From: Justusliebigvirus alia
Strand: one strand, 5' to 3'
Sequence record: OZ035799.1
DNA length: 64,000 nt
Shown: positions 4,635 through 48,497 of the stretch, piece by piece
How positions within the stretch are numbered: position 1 is the stretch's first letter
Layout: each line of letters starts with the position of its first letter
Made by a program: the position numbers and the translations under genes
The notes under the pieces: generated by a model
What the model saw: only the letters and a program-made list of their open reading frames with translations
Database searches by the model: none
Told to the model about the DNA's origin: nothing

Positions 4635-5017
4635 AAACTGAAATCATTAACGAAATGATCAACGGCTATAAAGAAGCCTTTATTTTTGCCGAACCAGCGA
4701 CGGATCACAATGGGGAATATATTGAGAATCTAGACGATTATGATTTTTCTCCTAGCGCCCTGAAACGTATTACCAGCGATGTGACCGCCTTTTGTAGTGC
4801 CAATGTTGCCGCTATCTCTGAGGCAATGAGCGACGGCGCAACAGCAAACCAGATCGGGAATGACTTACATTTCACCCGTAACGGTCACGGCGTAGGCTTT
4901 TGGGATCGCCCTGAAATATACACTACTAACACCGCCAACCGCCTAACAAATGCAGCTAAATTAATGCCATCGGTGCATGCTTACATTGGTGAAGATAATT
5001 TGATTTATATTGAATAA
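4631..5017 (+). CDS. hypothetical protein (128 aa)
   Basis: ORF, start overlaps upstream stop (ATGA coupling). Confidence 0.6.
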   Translation: MKTEIINEMINGYKEAFIFAEPATDHNGEYIENLDDYDFSPSALKRITSDVTAFCSANVAAISEAMSDGATANQIGNDLHFTRNGHGVGFWDRPEIYTTNTANRLTNAAKLMPSVHAYIGEDNLIYIE

Positions 5018-5022
5018 AAGTA

Positions 5023-5081
5023 TTGACACCGATCCCCAGTATGGTATTATTTACCACGTAGGCGGGAAATGGTTTCCCGCC
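5023..5081 (+). promoter_or_regulatory. PeSL-like cassette (TTGACA-N17-ATTATT + hairpin GGCGGGAAATGGTTTCCCGCC)
   Basis: promoter hexamers plus inverted repeat. Confidence 0.65.
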
Positions 5082-5104
5082 AGGTAATCAAAAAGGTAAA
5101 TACT

Positions 5105-5494
5105 ATGCGCAACCTGGTTTCTGTTTCTAACGTTGAAAAATTCCAATCTTTACAGGGTATCGTTAACAACGTAGCGCCTTTTTTAGTCAATGGCTTGATT
5201 GCAAAGATGAAGAATAAACATCATGCCGCATGGTCTGCTTACTGCTTTGACAATGATGAAAAAGCGGCTGAAATGATGTTAAATATGCTGTTAGACAGTG
5301 TAGAATCATCTTTACCGGAAAACATCGCAGAAGAGATCACCTATCGTTATAATATGGCGATCACTTACCAGGAGGTTGCGCAATTTAATATGATGGATGA
5401 TGACGAACAACAGGATCAGGAAATTTTCTGGGAGTATGCTGATCGCCAATCGGCTTTTGATGAAAAATTAGCGATGTATTATAATGAATATTAA
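5105..5494 (+). CDS. hypothetical protein (129 aa)
   Basis: ORF track start 5069 lies inside the hairpin; ATG at 5105 has RBS AAAAGGTAAAT. Confidence 0.6.
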   Translation: MRNLVSVSNVEKFQSLQGIVNNVAPFLVNGLIAKMKNKHHAAWSAYCFDNDEKAAEMMLNMLLDSVESSLPENIAEEITYRYNMAITYQEVAQFNMMDDDEQQDQEIFWEYADRQSAFDEKLAMYYNEY

Positions 5495-5510
5495 TACACG
5501 GTAAAAGAAA

Positions 5511-5536
5511 GGGGCGCACTAAGCGCCCTTTTTTGT
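5511..5536 (+). terminator. rho-independent terminator (GGGGCGC-ACTAA-GCGCCCC + T6)
   Basis: GC hairpin plus TTTTTT. Confidence 0.75.
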
Positions 5537-5957
5537 ATTCTTTTTTCACAATGGAAGCGACACGTAAAGAATAGGCGTAAAGGTGGCGTAAAACCATCTA
5601 AAACCGACTGTAACCGCTTAAACAAGGTAGGAATGATTAATCACCTTACCAGGATGAAAAAGCCGTTATAAAGCTATCTAGAGCGTTTAAAGCACATAGG
5701 AAATAATTTGCTTTTTATCTTGCCTTTTATTCTGCTTTTGATTATTATTATGGAACGGGCGGCACCTGGGGACAGGGGGAAGATAATCACCGGACGACCC
5801 CGCTATATATTGATAGCTAACATCTATCAAACAACAAAACATCAAAGAAATAAACTATCAAATCTTTACAATCTCATCTATTGACCGATAAATCATAGCA
5901 GTTTAATATTGTTTTTAGAGGGTAGAACATACCCAAAACGAAAACAGGAAAAAGAAA

Positions 5958-6194
5958 ATGAAAGAAGTCATGATCCTCAAAAAATCACCTATTTTACGTG
6001 GTGGCTTTATCGCTTACTCTGATGATCTGTTAATTGCAACGGTTGCAAAAATACTAAAATCAGAAGAGGATAGTAAAAACGGCGTTTATCGTATCTGTTT
6101 CACCCGTGGGAAATTGCAAGGCAAGATCGCCTATGCTTTTGATTTACAAGATGTAAATGATAAAATCTGCGCTGTTATTGATTATGCAAAATAA
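5958..6194 (+). CDS. hypothetical protein (78 aa)
   Basis: ORF with RBS ACAGGAAAAAG; promoter-like TTGACC ... TAATAT upstream. Confidence 0.6.
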   Translation: MKEVMILKKSPILRGGFIAYSDDLLIATVAKILKSEEDSKNGVYRICFTRGKLQGKIAYAFDLQDVNDKICAVIDYAK

Positions 6195-6206
6195 TTAACT
6201 TTCTTA

Positions 6207-6240
6207 TTGACACCGGATCACGCTTACATTATTATTTATC
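6207..6240 (+). promoter_or_regulatory. sigma70-like promoter (TTGACA ... ATTATT)
   Basis: hexamers upstream of CDS 6282. Confidence 0.5.
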
Positions 6241-6281
6241 ACGTAGGGCAAATCATTTTAAACGGTAAACGAGGAAACACC

Positions 6282-6665
6282 ATGAGCAATATCATCAACC
6301 TGGCAGCGACTGTAAACGGTAAAGACTTTAACGGCGCTGTAGACCGTGATCCTATGTGGTGCTTATCAGTGTTTAAAGGCGACCTGGTTGAAGTTAGAAC
6401 AACCGAAGGGTATAGCGATGATTATAAATGCGAGATCCATTTACATAACTGGTACACGGGTAAAACTTATGCGCTGAATCACGCGTTTATCGGGAAAATT
6501 GAATATCGCGAAATGATCGACGAAGAAACGGGGCAAGATTTTAGCGATTATGTTTATATTCGTTCCGAAACATTAGCCGAACGGTTGATCGAGAAAATGA
6601 AAGCAAAAAATAAAATTAATTTATCTCATTGGATTGATATAACAAACGATCCAGCTTATCAGTAA
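6282..6665 (+). CDS. hypothetical protein (127 aa)
   Basis: internal ATG of ORF 6207..6665 behind RBS ACGAGGAAAC. Confidence 0.6.
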   Translation: MSNIINLAATVNGKDFNGAVDRDPMWCLSVFKGDLVEVRTTEGYSDDYKCEIHLHNWYTGKTYALNHAFIGKIEYREMIDEETGQDFSDYVYIRSETLAERLIEKMKAKNKINLSHWIDITNDPAYQ

Positions 6666-6681
6666 ATAACATTCCATACAA

Positions 6682-6707
6682 GGGCGCAATAAGCGCCCTT
6701 TCTTTTT
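6682..6707 (+). terminator. rho-independent terminator (GGGCGC-AATAA-GCGCCC + T-run)
   Basis: same hairpin as terminator at 1301. Confidence 0.75.
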
Positions 6708-6913
6708 ACCTCAATAAAGATGATAGCTTTTACCTATCAAAAACGTTCACCGAAAAAAGTGAATAGATCGCGGTATCGAGCTAATCAAGGAGCAGATGAA
6801 CAACCATACCATGAAGATCATAAGGCGCTTACAACGTGTTTTAGACCGCTTATTTTTAATTTCTTCATGCAACTATCTGGCAAAAACAGCCTTTTTCTTG
6901 TCTTTCCTCTTAA

Positions 6914-6987
6914 ATGATAATCATTCTTATTTATAGCTGATTATTTATGCAATAAACTGCATAATGCAATAATGATAATCATTCTTA
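6914..6987. repeat. two copies of 17-bp direct repeat AATGATAATCATTCTTA, each a Fur-box-like palindrome
   Basis: exact repeat at 6914-6930 and 6971-6987; core matches E. coli Fur consensus GATAATGATAATCATTATC. Confidence 0.55.
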
Positions 6988-7346
6988 ACTTATGACCATC
7001 TAACCTATAAAATAATAAGTTATCTAACTAAATTAAAACTAATTATCTTACTTTTATTTATAACTTACTGTTACTATCTCATTGATAACCTTATATTAAA
7101 CAACAATAACTAATATAAATCATTACTAAGCTAAATATAATCTATCTAACCTTTAAAACTATAACTATAATCTATTGAATTATTGCACAAAGTAACTATT
7201 AAATCGTTAGTAACATTACTAAATAATTAATATCCTATTTATTTATGATCTAATCTTTACCTTACTATCTATTACCTAAATAATCATTTTATACCGTAAT
7301 CATTTCATACAATAATTATAACAAGAAATATAATTAGCAAGCGTAT

Positions 7347-7523
7347 CATTAGCAGCCTATGCCGGACACATAGGCGGCTAATAATAACGCAACTACACAC
7401 CCCACATAATAACCATCACCGATAGTTATTATTTGTGCTTATGTAGCTTGCAACAACTGCAAGCGCAACAATATACATGGTATATTGTATTCCCTTACAT
7501 TGTTGCGGTGCGTTATTATTAGC
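7347..7523. repeat. nested inverted repeats (outer 15-bp IR GCTAATAATAACGCA at 7377-7391 / 7509-7523; inner hairpins at 7347-7369 and 7448-7466)
   Basis: reverse-complement matches seen directly in sequence. Confidence 0.5.
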
Positions 7524-7550
7524 TAATGTTTAGAACATTGGCTATAATAT

Positions 7551-7620
7551 AAGCTATCCAATAATATAAGCTATCCAATAATAATAAGCTATACAATAAT
7601 AATAAGCTATACAATAATAA
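7551..7620. repeat. four tandem copies of a 17-18 bp unit AAGCTAT(C/A)CAATAATAAT (iteron-like)
   Basis: head-to-tail repeats seen directly. Confidence 0.7.
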
Positions 7621-7916
7621 ACATCGTGAATAATGATGCTGATGATCATAATGCGCCACCTTCCAGGGCGGCGCTATGTGAACACAAAGAAATCTTTCTT
7701 GTCAAGAAAAATATTAACACTATTGCGCAAAATTATTTATATATGAATAGATGGTTTTTCATACTATTGCCCCTATAACATACCTCATTTGTTGCAATGT
7801 ACCTTCCTATTTGTTGAGTATAGTTATAGCCTATTTGTTGAGCCTACTTTCTTAAAAGCGCAATAAAGTAGAAATATCTTGATTTTTAGTCGGTTTTATA
7901 GTACAGAAAGTATGCA

Positions 7917-7932
7917 AATGATAATCATTATC
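7917..7932. promoter_or_regulatory. Fur-box-like palindrome AATGATAATCATTATC
   Basis: 17 of 19 positions match the 19-bp Fur consensus. Confidence 0.5.
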
Positions 7933-8097
7933 AGCTATCTTCCACGGGTAGCACTATTTCACGCCAGATCATTTCATTTGGCAAGGTGTATATAGATGTT
8001 TAGACTTGCCAAGCCATTGATTTACTTAGAATTTATCTGTTTTGTTGTGAGTAGTACCTTTCTTGCTCAGAAAATAATCAAAAGTCTTATAAGTCAT

Positions 8098-8133
8098 TGA
8101 ATGATAATGCAAATGATAATTATTCTCATTGAT
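8098..8133. promoter_or_regulatory. Fur-box-like elements (GAATGATAATG / AAATGATAATTATTCTCATT)
   Basis: partial matches to Fur consensus. Confidence 0.35.
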
Positions 8134-8502
8134 ATTTGAGGGGGACGGTCGGCAGAAATCGGGGGGCGCTGAAAATCGCGTTAAGCACCTCTCGCAAGCG
8201 AGCAGTATTTTGCGGCAAGTTATTGATATTATTGACTTTACGCTTATGAAAAGGGGGTGTGTCGAAATAAATCGGGTATACCGGAAAATTTTTGTGGCAT
8301 AGATATTTATTTGTCTATATTATGTACAAAGGGGTGTGTTAAAAATATTAGGTATATATAGAATAATTGATAGGGAAATCCTATGCTAATCCCTCCATTA
8401 ATGATGTTCCTATGTTACTGTTCTTGTAATAGATGAAAAGACGCTGTATGATGTGTGGCATGAAACGTAAACTTACAACGTAAACTTATAAAGGAGTCTG
8501 AT

Positions 8503-8880
8503 ATGTGTGTTCCTCTTAGCAGTCCACTGCTGTTAGAATTTTACAAAGCATGGATGCAAGATCATTCCTCAATGCATCGTGAGAATGTTGGTTTGTGTAT
8601 TTGCCTTATGGATTATCTGGCAACCACTATGTCAAAGAAAAAACCTACGCGAGAAGATATAGAACATTTCAAAATGGTTCGCAGTAAAACGCTGGAAGAG
8701 ATGAAATTGCAATTCACGTGTGCTGGGCTATCCTCCTTCCTGCCCTTTAATGATGATCTTCTGTGTTATGAAGATGAAGGTAAGAAACATTCTTGCCATA
8801 CTAACCCAGAGAGATTGCAGTGGGTGAAAGATCGTATTGCCGATTCATGTTTGGTGTTAGGGGGTGATAATGAAAAGTAA
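8503..8880 (+). CDS. hypothetical protein, paralog family member A (125 aa)
   Basis: RBS AAAGGAG; shares motifs GLCxCLxD, FTCAGL, LPFN, RLQWVKDRI with 8870, 11162 and 12154 ORFs. Confidence 0.7.
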   Translation: MCVPLSSPLLLEFYKAWMQDHSSMHRENVGLCICLMDYLATTMSKKKPTREDIEHFKMVRSKTLEEMKLQFTCAGLSSFLPFNDDLLCYEDEGKKHSCHTNPERLQWVKDRIADSCLVLGGDNEK

Positions 8881-9238
8881 TATTCCGTTGAGTAGTGCAG
8901 CTTTAATACGATTCTATAAAGCATGGATTGCCAACCATCCGGCAATGAATCGCACAACGAGTGGCTTGTGTGGTTGTCTGGTAGATTATGTAGATGATTT
9001 TGTTGGTGAGGTAACTAGAGAAGAAGATAAAAGATGGCGTGATCGTTTGTTGGATAGTTTGAAATACGAAATGAGGAAACAATTTACATGTGCAGGACTG
9101 GACTACAATCTTCCGTTCAATGCAGATTGCATGGATTACCTTTCAGAATGTATAGACTTGGCGTGTCATACCAACACGTTACGTCTTCAATGGGTGAAAG
9201 ACAGAATCGAAGATGCAAATAATGCTTGCATTGAATAG
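8870..9238 (+). CDS. hypothetical protein, paralog family member B (122 aa)
   Basis: RBS AGGGGGTGA; tandem to member A with same motifs. Confidence 0.7.
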   Translation: MKSNIPLSSAALIRFYKAWIANHPAMNRTTSGLCGCLVDYVDDFVGEVTREEDKRWRDRLLDSLKYEMRKQFTCAGLDYNLPFNADCMDYLSECIDLACHTNTLRLQWVKDRIEDANNACIE

Positions 9239-9309
9239 AAATGCCTGTACACTGTGTTCCATAAGATATGCAATATCGCGCATAACAAAACTACTAATGA
9301 GAGGTGTAA

Positions 9310-9768
9310 ATGAAAACTGTATCTTTGTATCTTGCTAACACGGAGCGTGTACATAATCTTGTAAAAGAATGCGGTGTGAGTGTTCAATTTAACATAGGAA
9401 CGCCTTCCGTGGTGACAGGCAGCGAGATGTGTGTTATTGATTTCATCAATGAATATTTTCGTGGGAAGCCTATTGCTCGTCACTTCATTCGAGAAATGCG
9501 AGATGTACAACAGGATTATGAATTCTACCCAGAAATTTGTGAACGCTATGAAACTATTCTTAGTTCTGTAGAAGATCCAGATACCAGTGAAACAGGTGTT
9601 TCCCACTTACTGTGGATGTTGAATGAAATCCAGGATGGGTGTAATGATATGTCTGAAACCAAACGCCATCGTTGGCTAGGCTATATTCAGGGTGTTATGG
9701 TTATGAAAAACCTTATTACAGTTGATGATGAACGTAACGCTACGCGCCCCGTCTTTAATGGAGCATAA
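9310..9768 (+). CDS. hypothetical protein (152 aa)
   Basis: ORF with RBS GAGAGGTG. Confidence 0.6.
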   Translation: MKTVSLYLANTERVHNLVKECGVSVQFNIGTPSVVTGSEMCVIDFINEYFRGKPIARHFIREMRDVQQDYEFYPEICERYETILSSVEDPDTSETGVSHLLWMLNEIQDGCNDMSETKRHRWLGYIQGVMVMKNLITVDDERNATRPVFNGA

Positions 9769-9769
9769 C

Positions 9770-9985
9770 ATGAAAAGCATCCAGGTGTGTATTGAAAATA
9801 ATTGTGGTTATCTGGGATTGACACACGTTGCTTTCCCTCTTATGTTAGATGCCGATATCGCTTACAGCGGAGTTGCTTATGTGTCATTCAAGACAATGAG
9901 CCAAGTACCTGGCTGGAAGTGGGAAGTAGTTGATGTTGTTGAAGGAGAAGACTATGTTTTCCTTCCACACGAATATACTGTTTAA
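9770..9985 (+). CDS. hypothetical protein (71 aa)
   Basis: internal ATG of ORF 9722..9985 with RBS AATGGAG. Confidence 0.5.
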   Translation: MKSIQVCIENNCGYLGLTHVAFPLMLDADIAYSGVAYVSFKTMSQVPGWKWEVVDVVEGEDYVFLPHEYTV

Positions 9986-9999
9986 AAGAGGAAAAGAAG

Positions 10000-10176
10000 A
10001 TGGATAAACAAACTACTGTGTACTTAGTAACAAAGAATACCCCAGGCTGGAGCCAATGCAGCACTGTACCTTACAAAATCTGTGCAACATTAGAACTAGC
10101 ACAACGTGCAGAAGCAGAAGTGAATGCCATGCAATACAGCTATGGTGAAATCATTCCTTTTACTCTTGAACAATAA
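10000..10176 (+). CDS. hypothetical protein (58 aa)
   Basis: ORF not in track; RBS AAGAGGAAAAG. Confidence 0.5.
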   Translation: MDKQTTVYLVTKNTPGWSQCSTVPYKICATLELAQRAEAEVNAMQYSYGEIIPFTLEQ

Positions 10177-37076: not shown

Positions 37077-38161
37077 TAGAAGTCTAACTCCTCGTCATCA
37101 CTTACATCTTTATTTGCTGAATTCAGTTTGTAAGCTGTAATTTGGATCTCCTGTGCTGCTGCTTGAATTTGATCTGGATTTAACCAAACATCCATCCAAG
37201 GCAGTGGACTTTTCTTCGGTGCACGGAATTTGTGTTTCATTTTCAGTCTGCGATAGATAGGCGCAGCATTGAAGTAAACCCAAAGTTTGAACAACTCTGC
37301 GTTACCACCAACGATAATCCTTCCTTCACTAAACAGATAGTCACACCAATCTTCCTCTTGTCCAACTACCGTGTCAAGAATTTCTGTCAGAACGTCGATA
37401 TTATCTTCGTATACTTTTCTCCAGACAGGATCTTTCAGCAGTGCATCAATAATAGCATAATCCATTTTAACGTGCAATAGTTCATCCAACATAATTTTTT
37501 GAATGAGTTTAGCTGCACCTACAAACAGTTGCTGCTCTGCTAAGGCAAATGTTGCAGCAAAAGATGATATGAATTGAATGCCTTCCAGACCGATAAGTGC
37601 AATCATTCCTTTCAGAATCAGTAGACGAAGATTATCATCCTTCTCAATCAGACCTAGAGCATATTTATGTCCTGCCTCTGCCAGATCACTCATTATCTCT
37701 TCAACTATACCCATCCTCTGGAAGATTCTTTCATTCTCCATGATCTGATCGATAACTTCATTTGGATTAGGGATACACTGACGAATAATTTCAGAATATG
37801 TCAAAGCGTGTAAAACTTCCATCTCTGATTGCTTCATCATCATTGCACATGCTTCGTTGTTGCTTAAAAATGGTGCAAACAAAGTGATGATTGATTTAGC
37901 AAGTGAATCATTTTCCCATTGGAAAGATAGGTTTTTGATCATAACATCATAGTTGCTTTTAGAACAAGCTACGAAATCTTTTCGTGTCTGATCTAAGTTT
38001 ACTTCGTTTTCATCCCAATCTTGCTGTTTTTGTAGTTTGTACAGACGATGCATTTCTGGGTATGTTACATTAATAGAATCAAAAATACCTAACTGTTCTC
38101 CCAAAAATACAGGGTAGAAACCTTCTTTGTAAGTGTCGTTGTATAAGTTAATTGCTGCCAT
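37076..38161 (-). CDS. nrdB: ribonucleotide reductase class Ia beta subunit
   Basis: ferritin-like R2 size and motifs; adjacent to nrdA. Confidence 0.85.
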   Translation of the reverse strand: MAAINLYNDTYKEGFYPVFLGEQLGIFDSINVTYPEMHRLYKLQKQQDWDENEVNLDQTRKDFVACSKSNYDVMIKNLSFQWENDSLAKSIITLFAPFLSNNEACAMMMKQSEMEVLHALTYSEIIRQCIPNPNEVIDQIMENERIFQRMGIVEEIMSDLAEAGHKYALGLIEKDDNLRLLILKGMIALIGLEGIQFISSFAATFALAEQQLFVGAAKLIQKIMLDELLHVKMDYAIIDALLKDPVWRKVYEDNIDVLTEILDTVVGQEEDWCDYLFSEGRIIVGGNAELFKLWVYFNAAPIYRRLKMKHKFRAPKKSPLPWMDVWLNPDQIQAAAQEIQITAYKLNSANKDVSDDEELDF

Positions 38162-48182: not shown

Positions 48183-48461
48183 TCAAATAATAACTACAAA
48201 ATATTTTACACCATCATATTCGACAATATGATCAGGATATTTAAATCCTTTATAAGATTTACCAAACAGACTAACAGCCTCATTAGCTTTGTTTTGCGGA
48301 TTACTCAGCCACTGTTCTTCTGTGTAAAACTTAAACTCTGTTCTCTTACCTTCTTTTTCTAAACCAACAATTTCCTGTGTGATATCTTCAATACCTGCAT
48401 TCTTCAAGGATTTAATTACCTGACGCAAACCGTGTTTAAAGATATCTTCTGCTGTTAACAT
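48183..48461 (-). CDS. hypothetical protein (92 aa)
   Basis: ORF. Confidence 0.5.
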   Translation of the reverse strand: MLTAEDIFKHGLRQVIKSLKNAGIEDITQEIVGLEKEGKRTEFKFYTEEQWLSNPQNKANEAVSLFGKSYKGFKYPDHIVEYDGVKYFVVII

Positions 48462-48497
48462 AATACCTCCAATAAGCCCCCGAAGGGGCTTTATTTC

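Follow-up and report, generated by a model that had tools for sequence, protein, structure and literature searches.

Fur boxes in bacterial and phage genomes

Fur boxes have been known as promoter operators of iron genes and, on phages, in the literature that we found, only with the cargo genes of temperate phages. The prophage cargo gene stx1, for example, has a Fur box upstream. On lambdoid coliphages, Fur boxes are found upstream of the prophage cargo genes sitABCD (PMC6969025). The present report deals with an open reading frame (ORF)-free stretch of about 1.8 kb in Justusliebigvirus alia, a phi92-like virulent myovirus of the Stephanstirmvirinae, within which lie four Fur-type palindromes (AATGATAATnATTnTCATT). 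The analysis started from a 64,000-nucleotide stretch of DNA (OZ035799.1), hereafter the window, which exact overlap with the remaining sequence identifies as the final 64 kb of the 148,442-bp alia genome; positions 6600-8500 of the window are 100% identical to positions 91042-92942 of OZ035770.1. What is new, as judged from sequence, is the occurrence of operator-grade boxes in the structural non-coding DNA of a virulent phage, that is, in a terminal repeat, at the boundaries of transcription units and in dense arrays.

The alia boxes resemble the Fur sites of E. coli described by Chen et al. (2007; PMC2189734) in that they have the same 19-bp palindrome, the 7-1-7 core and pairs of sites offset by 6 bp, but iron genes do not follow them, and a placement over promoters is not demonstrable. 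They also differ from the E. coli Fur clusters in lying in the terminal repeat of a virulent phage and in forming, elsewhere in the phage, arrays of separate boxes 17-45 bp apart. The boxes of sitABCD and stx1 are likewise phage-borne DNA read by host Fur; however, these are promoter operators for the iron-related cargo of temperate phages, whereas the alia boxes occupy structural non-coding DNA of a virulent phage and are not followed by any iron-related gene. That a phage terminus can contain a site for a host protein is known from lambda, where the DNA-binding protein IHF has an architectural role at site I1 in cosB, in the packaging region. Both the protein and the motif are different from those considered here, and IHF, unlike Fur, is not a metabolic sensor; an IHF-like role for Fur would be hypothetical.

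The four Fur-type sites of the alia non-coding region

Sites were scored mainly by the number of mismatches to the 19-bp palindromic Fur box AATGATAATnATTATCATT; the classical 19-bp consensus (GATAATGATAATCATTATC), the 7-1-7 inverted-repeat form (TGATAATnATTATCA) and the 9-1-9 palindrome were also used. The scoring thus relied on published consensus forms, together with direct comparison to the ent/fep operators of E. coli and the Fur site of prophage Qin, and not on a Fur weight matrix. Box 1 (AATGATAATCATTCTTATT, 6913-6931) has two mismatches to the palindrome. Box 2 (AATGATAATCATTCTTAAC, 6971-6989) is the weakest of the four, with four mismatches to the palindrome and 3 of 19 to the classical consensus at 6968-6986. 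Box 3 (7911-7935) comprises two 19-mers at a 6-bp offset, the main one of which (7917-7935) has two mismatches; it agrees with the classical consensus at 17 of 19 positions (7914-7932), as had been predicted, and includes a perfect 7-1-7 element, TGATAATCATTATCA, at 7919-7933. Box 4 (8100-8133) is a composite, GATAAT-GCAAAT-GATAAT-t-ATTCTC-ATTGAT, with one mismatch in 18 in its main 19-mer (8112-8130) and an extra GATAAT hexamer at 8103-8108.

The overlap of 19-mers at a 6-bp offset, seen in box 3 (7911/7917) and in box 4 (8106/8112), is present in all of the footprinted E. coli Fur sites of Chen et al. (2007; PMC2189734). Scored in the same way, the fepA-fes, fepD-entS and fepB-entC control regions of E. 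coli K-12 reach 3-4 mismatches in their best boxes, and the phage boxes are therefore at least of operator grade. The original prediction of four Fur-consensus sites holds for all four, except that the first is at 6913-6929 and not, as proposed, at 6914-6930. The region is also ORF-free in practice, as was claimed: the ORF list contains no ORF of more than 65 amino acids in it, and no coding sequence (CDS) is present in the homologous stretch of three curated relatives.

Base composition does not account for these sites. Within the 64-kb window, the classical 19-mer with up to three mismatches gives three matches at two loci against 0.06 expected, and AATGATAATCATT with up to one mismatch gives seven matches on both strands (four loci), all of them in 6913-8124, against 0.54 expected. 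A local null was provided by a first-order Markov model trained on the AT-rich 1.83-kb region 6670-8500 (31.7% GC) and run for 5000 simulations; three sites were observed against 0.002 expected at up to two mismatches, and seven against 0.18 at up to four, and neither count was reached in any of the 5000 simulations. In the whole 148-kb genome, seven sites with up to three mismatches are found where 0.42 are expected, and all seven fall in two non-coding regions that together make up less than 1% of the genome. These two regions also hold 8 of the 11 genome-wide 7-1-7 matches with up to two mismatches. The clustering of the sites was therefore correctly predicted, and the whole-genome scan shows strong matches in the two non-coding regions only, not at equal density throughout the genome. 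Chance occurrence in AT-rich DNA, which had been put forward as the main alternative, is ruled out by the window, genome and local Markov nulls alike.

The position of the boxes becomes apparent from comparison with phi92, for which a direct terminal repeat (DTR) is annotated as DTR-L (1-343) and DTR-R (148270-148612). Both copies align at near identity to window 7841-8183, and a 342-bp DTR is present in phage BME3. By homology only, this 343-bp segment is taken to be the terminal repeat of alia, appearing as a single copy in a permuted assembly and corresponding to the concatemer junction. Because the phi92 copies align there, boxes 3 and 4 would lie inside the terminal repeat, and virion DNA would therefore carry both boxes at both ends. 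This placement at the concatemer junction had been missed in the original prediction. About 85 bp lie between the left DTR boundary and the center of box 3, and 50 bp separate the end of composite box 4 from the right boundary. Boxes 1 and 2 are about 210-290 bp past the terminator of the preceding gene, gp248, on either side of a conserved palindrome.

Conservation and a second array

All four sites are kept in close relatives, with occasional point changes. When the region is compared with that of Phapecoctavirus (phAPEC8, ukendt and ZCKP1), 46% of the non-coding columns are invariant as background, against 79% in box 1 and 79% in box 3; the value for box 2 is 63%. Box 1 of phAPEC8 (TGATAACCATTATCA) is changed at three positions and is still a good box, and the 19-mer of box 4 is identical in all three phages after allowing for a 6-bp (one-hexamer) indel. 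Some of the Phapecoctavirus substitutions in the boxes go toward the consensus.

The other non-coding region with strong sites contains five boxes (TGATAATCATTTTCA, TGAGAATCATTATCA, TGATAATCATTCTCA, TGAGAATCATTAGCA and TGAGAATTTTTCTCA) in about 112 bp, at 80,199-80,310 of the genome (OZ035770.1; 30199-30310 of our segment L010). This second array is 4.2 kb before the start of the window and about 12 kb upstream of the terminal repeat, in a gap of 815 bp that is free of ORFs and separates the 3′ ends of the convergent homologues of phi92 gp223 and gp224. Homologous loci, located by the similarity of their flanks and not by the motif, were found in Phapecoctavirus and in the Vequintavirinae genera Seunavirus, Certrevirus and Mydovirus, which are phages of Salmonella, Pectobacterium and Klebsiella. 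These loci have 2-4 boxes, variable in number and spacing, and each array ends in a perfect AATGATAAT(C/T)ATTCTCATT. Such turnover of boxes around a fixed consensus points to selection for binding to a constant factor. Judging from these alignments, the boxes are conserved across two phage subfamilies and appear to be selectively maintained, and the second array is the more telling evidence for this.

Similar boxes in T5, lambda and other phages

When the second array of alia was used as a blastn query, it matched the annotated injection stop signal of T5 (T5 9608-9709). In the left terminal repeat of T5 (NC_005859), four distinct boxes were scored within about 9550-9715 (9552, 9587, 9656 and 9691/9697; for example, AATGAGAATCATTATCATT), and about six related repeats can be recognized there by eye. 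T5 has a further, perfect 7-1-7 box at 233-247 from its left end, in the 3′ part of the dmp gene; the left end is the end that enters the cell first. The T5 array follows a terminator and lies beside DnaA boxes and a nick, between convergent units, and the flanking words ATGCAAATGATAAT and GAATACGAATGATAAT are common to T5 and alia or phAPEC8. Davison (bioRxiv 10.1101/866236) listed the T5 repeats as DRC, DRE and palE-palJ and considered their function beyond guessing, and Fur is unmentioned. By the motif that they contain, the unexplained injection-stop palindromes of T5 are Fur-box arrays of the same type as in alia.

The arrangement of the two phages is alike in several respects. Both have such boxes in non-coding DNA of a terminal repeat, namely boxes 3 and 4 in alia and, in T5, the array of Repeat Region 3 of the injection stop; the second array of alia lies, like that of T5, between convergent units, and the cluster in the window lies downstream of a terminator. 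T5 is set apart from alia by the length of its repeat, 10.2 kb, and by its DnaA boxes, its nine DRD repeats and the nick beside its array. A T5-type pair of DnaA boxes around a 52-bp spacer (IRD'spacerIRC') is ruled out for alia, because neither of its two non-coding regions contains a DnaA box (TTWTNCACA). To our knowledge, two-step injection occurs only in T5-like phages.

Lambda (NC_001416; 48,502 bp) has a single strong Fur box, located at 48,450-48,468 (L140 551-569). It lies 34-52 bp from the right cohesive end, which is packaged last and ejected first, just to the left of GGGTCCT, which we take to be cosQ, and it is identical to the Qin site. The Qin "nohA" Fur site, for its part, sits in the lambda-type cos region of prophage Qin of E. 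coli K-12. Box 3 of alia resembles the lambda/Qin site in its identical 15-bp core and in its location tens of base pairs from a genome terminus, although lambda has a cos architecture and a single box, and alia a DTR and several boxes. The Fur literature treats the Qin site as an element of the nohA promoter. No link between the Qin/lambda site and cosQ or packaging was found in the literature searched, nor any paper tying Fur boxes to phi92-like phages, the T5 injection-stop (iss) region, terminal repeats or cosQ, in full-text searches that covered subscription journals poorly.

A scan of IMG/VR for perfect boxes returned at least 120 loci. Among the matches listed, the box was within 300 bp of a contig end in 20 of 120 loci, against 6.2 expected, and many contigs had dense arrays of 5-12 boxes per 400 bp. 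Such dense arrays are seen in the environmental viral contigs L035, L012/L036, L066, L071 and L096; several of them are at contig ends, and L066 starts with (GAGAAT)n hexamer repeats that run into the box. In a search for relatives of these dense-array contigs, L035 gave no match and L066 only a terminase neighbor.

Identity of the binding protein

The phage consensus, AATGA(T/G)AATCATT(C/A)TCATT, fits the 19-bp Fur palindrome and is variable exactly at the N positions of the published Fur consensus of Vibrionaceae (AATGANAATNATTNTCATT). The Qin-prophage site, 233 bp upstream of nohA, scores 22.3 bits, is shifted by 150 nM Fur and was recovered by in vivo selection with Fur (Chen et al., 2007; PMC2189734). 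This site was found at L139 2092-2110 (reverse complement, GATGATAATCATTATCACT), and the 15-bp core TGATAATCATTATCA is common to it, to the lambda box and to alia box 3. Recurrence of the same motif in unrelated phages suggests a shared host factor.

Two phage-encoded candidates were considered and rejected. One is a Fur protein of the phage itself, since tblastn against alia with the E. coli Fur sequence gave nothing better than E = 2.7. The other is a pre-early DNA-binding protein common to T5 and alia: in a tblastx comparison covering T5 1-50 kb, only a phosphatase, a tRNA, an endolysin and NrdB gave matches, and none of the T5 terminal-repeat genes had a homologue in alia. For the part of T5 compared, this makes a binder encoded by both phages unlikely. 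From the similarity of the sites, it is very probable that Fur binds to the boxes.

Gene context and other elements of the non-coding regions

The ORF-free stretch separates the homologue of phi92 gp248 from the early-region genes that start at 8503, and its GC content is 26-35% in the composition profile. The last gene before it (6282-6665, + strand, from the ORF list) corresponds to a 384-nt CDS in arall, Paula, PATM and phi92, in the last of which gp248 is the final gene. Its transcription unit is ended by an intrinsic terminator at 6680-6709 (+ strand), detected by a terminator scan as an 8-bp stem with six GC pairs and a T-run; the terminator is annotated as such in Paula, PATM and phAPEC8 and is kept in the alignment with Phapecoctavirus. 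The first gene past the region (8503-8880, + strand, ORF list) encodes a small hypothetical protein of the early region, with a homologous CDS in Paula and PATM. By eye, the genes at 8503-8880 and 8864-9238 look like tandem paralogues, with similar DNA at the starts of their ORFs. Every gene downstream of the region is on the + strand. Because nearly all genes are on one strand, GC skew is uninformative on a replication origin. No tRNA or Rfam match was obtained in either Fur-box non-coding region.

In the database, 47 related genomes have at least 80% query coverage. Among the Justusliebigvirus phages of the BASEL collection, the region is present in PaulScherrer and JohannJBalmer. Four records labeled "Campylobacter phage" (MG065639, MG065656, MG065645 and MG065689) are about 96% identical to the alia region and are probably mislabeled or contaminant Justusliebigvirus genomes.

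Several other elements surround the boxes. Between boxes 1 and 2, a conserved inverted repeat, TTATGCA-N6-TGCATAA (6945-6964), was read from the sequence and has 85% invariant columns. Box 2 is followed by a very AT-rich block (6990-7330, about 26% GC by composition profile) in which a repeat-family search revealed reiterated ATCTAAC/CTAAC-type words; this block is poorly conserved (35% invariant columns). Nested inverted repeats occupy 7340-7530 and include a perfect 15-nt pair (7377-7391/7509-7523) and a hairpin at about 7346-7372, whose stem, GCCTATG/CATAGGC, is replaced by CGCTATG/CATAGCG in Phapecoctavirus. This compensatory change suggests that a DNA or RNA structure is under selection at 7340-7530. 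The repeat search also identified four tandem 17-18-bp repeats (ATAAGCTATmCAATAATAA; 7549-7620, + strand), the copy number of which varies among strains and is lower in phi92; a repeat_region is annotated in the homologous non-coding region of arall. A weak Fur-like stretch at 7632-7650 is not conserved in Phapecoctavirus.

At the left edge of the DTR, the same search found two copies of CCTATTTGTTGAG (7806-7849, + strand), starting at 7806 and 7830, the second of which abuts the boundary at 7841; a weaker third copy of this type begins at about 7785 (CTCATTTGTTGCA). These repeats are candidates for the recognition signal of packaging cleavage, that is, of the terminase cut. Within the DTR, the best sigma-70-like site, TTGGCA-17-TAGACT (7978-8006, + strand; TTGACA in phi92), matches at 9 of 12 positions in a promoter scan; its status is uncertain, and its −35 but not its −10 element is kept in Phapecoctavirus. 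Downstream of the DTR, two copies of AAAGGGGTGTG were found in the repeat search (8251-8338, + strand; 8251-8261 and 8328-8338). With up to one mismatch, this word has five matches genome-wide, three of which, including both exact copies, are in the two Fur-box regions; the third of these is in the region of the second array (L010 29786). AT-rich blocks and repeats, such as accompany replication origins, occur in both regions; neither an initiator gene nor an origin was recognized.

Directly upstream of the second array are three direct repeats of about 62 bp (…TTATTTAAAGTTTTT…GAAAATGAAAAGTTCAA…; L010 29975-30185), which resemble iterons and could be a replication origin or another protein-binding array. 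On the other side, a segment at L010 30320-30580 is about 84% identical across distant phage genera, with a few compensatory pairs, and contains a conserved minus-strand sigma-70 promoter, TTGACA-17-TATACT, that points at the Fur array. A structured small RNA downstream of the array is not supported: the predicted fold is no more stable than those of shuffled sequences (z = +0.65), and comparison with Rfam families and tRNAs gave no match. The segment may be an RNA, an element of an origin or a small ORF.

A possible role at genome ends and transcription boundaries

The explanation that we favor is that the boxes are high-affinity sites for host Fur in cis-acting non-coding phage DNA, with a role at genome ends and at the boundaries of transcription. 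It is unproven, and we put its probability at roughly one half. According to this model, metallated Fur dimers would occupy the sites in iron-replete cells, and, at overlapping sites with a 6-bp offset, could extend into short filaments. Bound Fur would then serve as a block or as an architectural mark at genome ends and transcription-unit boundaries, and the boxes would not be classic promoter operators. Two versions of the terminal step are plausible on geometric grounds. In the first, Fur would cause the packaging motor to pause 50-80 bp before the terminal cut; box 4 could act in this way because it lies 50-80 bp upstream of the cut, as the lambda box lies just upstream of cosQ. In the second, Fur would form a cap or a handle on the first few hundred base pairs entering the cell. 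Either version would couple a step at the genome end to the iron status of the host.

Several points weigh against this model. The geometry differs between phages, so that one terminus mechanism cannot cover all sites: the lambda box is 34-52 bp from the end, and 50-95 bp separate the alia boxes from the boundaries of the DTR, but the T5 array lies at a depth of 500-670 bp in its repeat, and for the second array of alia the distance to the terminus is 12 kb. The phage arrays are also not host-like, because their boxes are 17-45 bp apart, whereas host operators overlap at 3 or 6 bp. Damage to boxes is evidently tolerated, since box 2 is degenerate in Phapecoctavirus and box 3 of phage Paula holds AACGATAAT. 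The excess of boxes near contig ends in IMG/VR may stem partly from assembly breaks induced by repeats. A weak promoter reading toward box 4 (7978-8006) makes some transcriptional effect possible. Fur occupancy in vivo and its functional consequence are inferred. Finally, we know of no report that fur mutants impair the growth of lambda or T5, although this is absence of evidence.

Among the alternatives, iron-dependent repression (or anti-repression) by Fur of phage early promoters overlapping the boxes would be the most conventional, and the original prediction had proposed that adjacent promoters are controlled in this way. GATAAT, a hexamer that resembles a −10 element, is part of Fur boxes, and in E. 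coli an overlap with sigma-70 promoters is seen for 83% of the Fur clusters (Chen et al., 2007; PMC2189734). The genes downstream of the region are all on the + strand. Moreover, the candidate TTGGCA-17-TAGACT lies between boxes 3 and 4, a TTGCAT-18-GATAAT can be read by eye across box 4 in phAPEC8, and in the environmental contig L065 a textbook promoter, TTGACA-17-TAAAAT, is followed by a box. However, sigma-70-like sites are not enriched in the region (14 against 13.9 in shuffled sequences), and no −35/−10 pair overlapping any box is kept between alia and Phapecoctavirus, in which the promoter candidates at box 4 are broken by the 6-bp indel. Boxes 1 and 2 precede the next gene by about 1.5 kb, the genes downstream have no iron-related annotation, and two of the three arrays examined, the second array of alia and that of T5, lie between convergent units with no protein gene downstream. 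Simple promoter repression is therefore not supported by these comparisons, and we regard this explanation as unlikely. A general phage promoter motif was also considered and rejected, on the grounds that the motif is confined to two non-coding regions of the 148-kb genome and that promoter-like sites show no enrichment.

It is also conceivable that the boxes have no function in cis but titrate Fur, about 9-11 strong sites per genome copy acting as a sponge that would de-repress iron uptake and RyhB and so feed ribonucleotide reductase. Multicopy Fur boxes are known to de-repress the Fur regulon, as exploited in the FURTA assay, and the cell contains about 5,000-10,000 Fur monomers, so that a few hundred genome copies would matter. 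Arrays of separate, non-overlapping boxes would suit maximal capture of dimers, and alia has, in common with T5, a homologue of NrdB, the small subunit of the iron-dependent class Ia ribonucleotide reductase (window 37133-38110), which gives the phage a direct stake in the host iron supply. On the other hand, T5 carries the same arrays and degrades host DNA in the pre-early phase, which would make de-repression of host genes futile; the single box of lambda is too few for titration; and de-repression, with the protein synthesis that has to follow, takes long compared with a lytic cycle. Furthermore, a sponge needs no fixed positions, but those of boxes 1, 3 and 4 correspond from one genus to the other. 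Titration, the other role originally suggested, is thus feasible by the number of sites, at least nine per genome, but would be pointless in T5, and it appears distinctly unlikely as the function of the boxes.

A third alternative is that the motif only looks like a Fur box and is recognized by a phage-encoded protein, such as the terminase small subunit, a replication initiator or an early repressor. The boxes do accompany cis elements of the packaging or replication type (the iteron-like 62-bp repeats, the tandem repeats, the nested hairpins and the repeats at the DTR boundary), their spacing in arrays differs from that of host operators, and the flanks ATGCAAATGATAAT and GAATACGAATGATAAT, common to alia or phAPEC8 and T5, could mean that a wider sequence is recognized. 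Yet one constant consensus is found in Stephanstirmvirinae, Vequintavirinae, T5-like phages and lambda, although these phages have almost no proteins in common, whereas a co-evolving pair of phage protein and site would be expected to drift. In addition, the variable positions of the motif are exactly the degenerate positions of Fur boxes, the identical lambda/Qin sequence is demonstrably bound by Fur, and no other part of the genome, other promoter regions included, has the motif. Recognition by a phage protein is accordingly improbable. Lastly, the absence of any function, the boxes being due to chance or a neutral by-product of repeat-prone DNA, can practically be dismissed: although the region has a low GC content (26-35%) and many other repeats and its weak Fur-like stretch at 7632-7650 is not conserved, the local simulations (0/5000) and the genome-wide nulls agree in excluding chance, the boxes are conserved above background across genera, and the motif recurs independently in unrelated phages.

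Implications for phage biology

A wider reading of the favored model is that strong Fur boxes are a general, unrecognized cis element near the genome ends of tailed enterobacterial phages, including lambda, T5 and the relatives of phi92, and that Fur acts in them as an iron-gated genome-end factor. The step aided by Fur might then be the termination of packaging, the arrest or handling of the entering end, or the insulation of the concatemer junction. This generalization is tentative and rather doubtful at present; the pattern across phages rests on three well-studied phages and a confounded metagenomic statistic, and needs a systematic test.

If Fur does act at these sites, a metabolic sensor of the host would be wired into the genome-end biology of phages. 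The boxes would also offer a first molecular handle on the injection-stop repeats of T5, which have been an unexplained puzzle for decades. For phi92-, rV5- and T5-like phages, which are components of therapy cocktails and meet iron-limited conditions in the gut and in infected tissue, the supply of iron could then prove to be a hidden variable that affects their efficiency.

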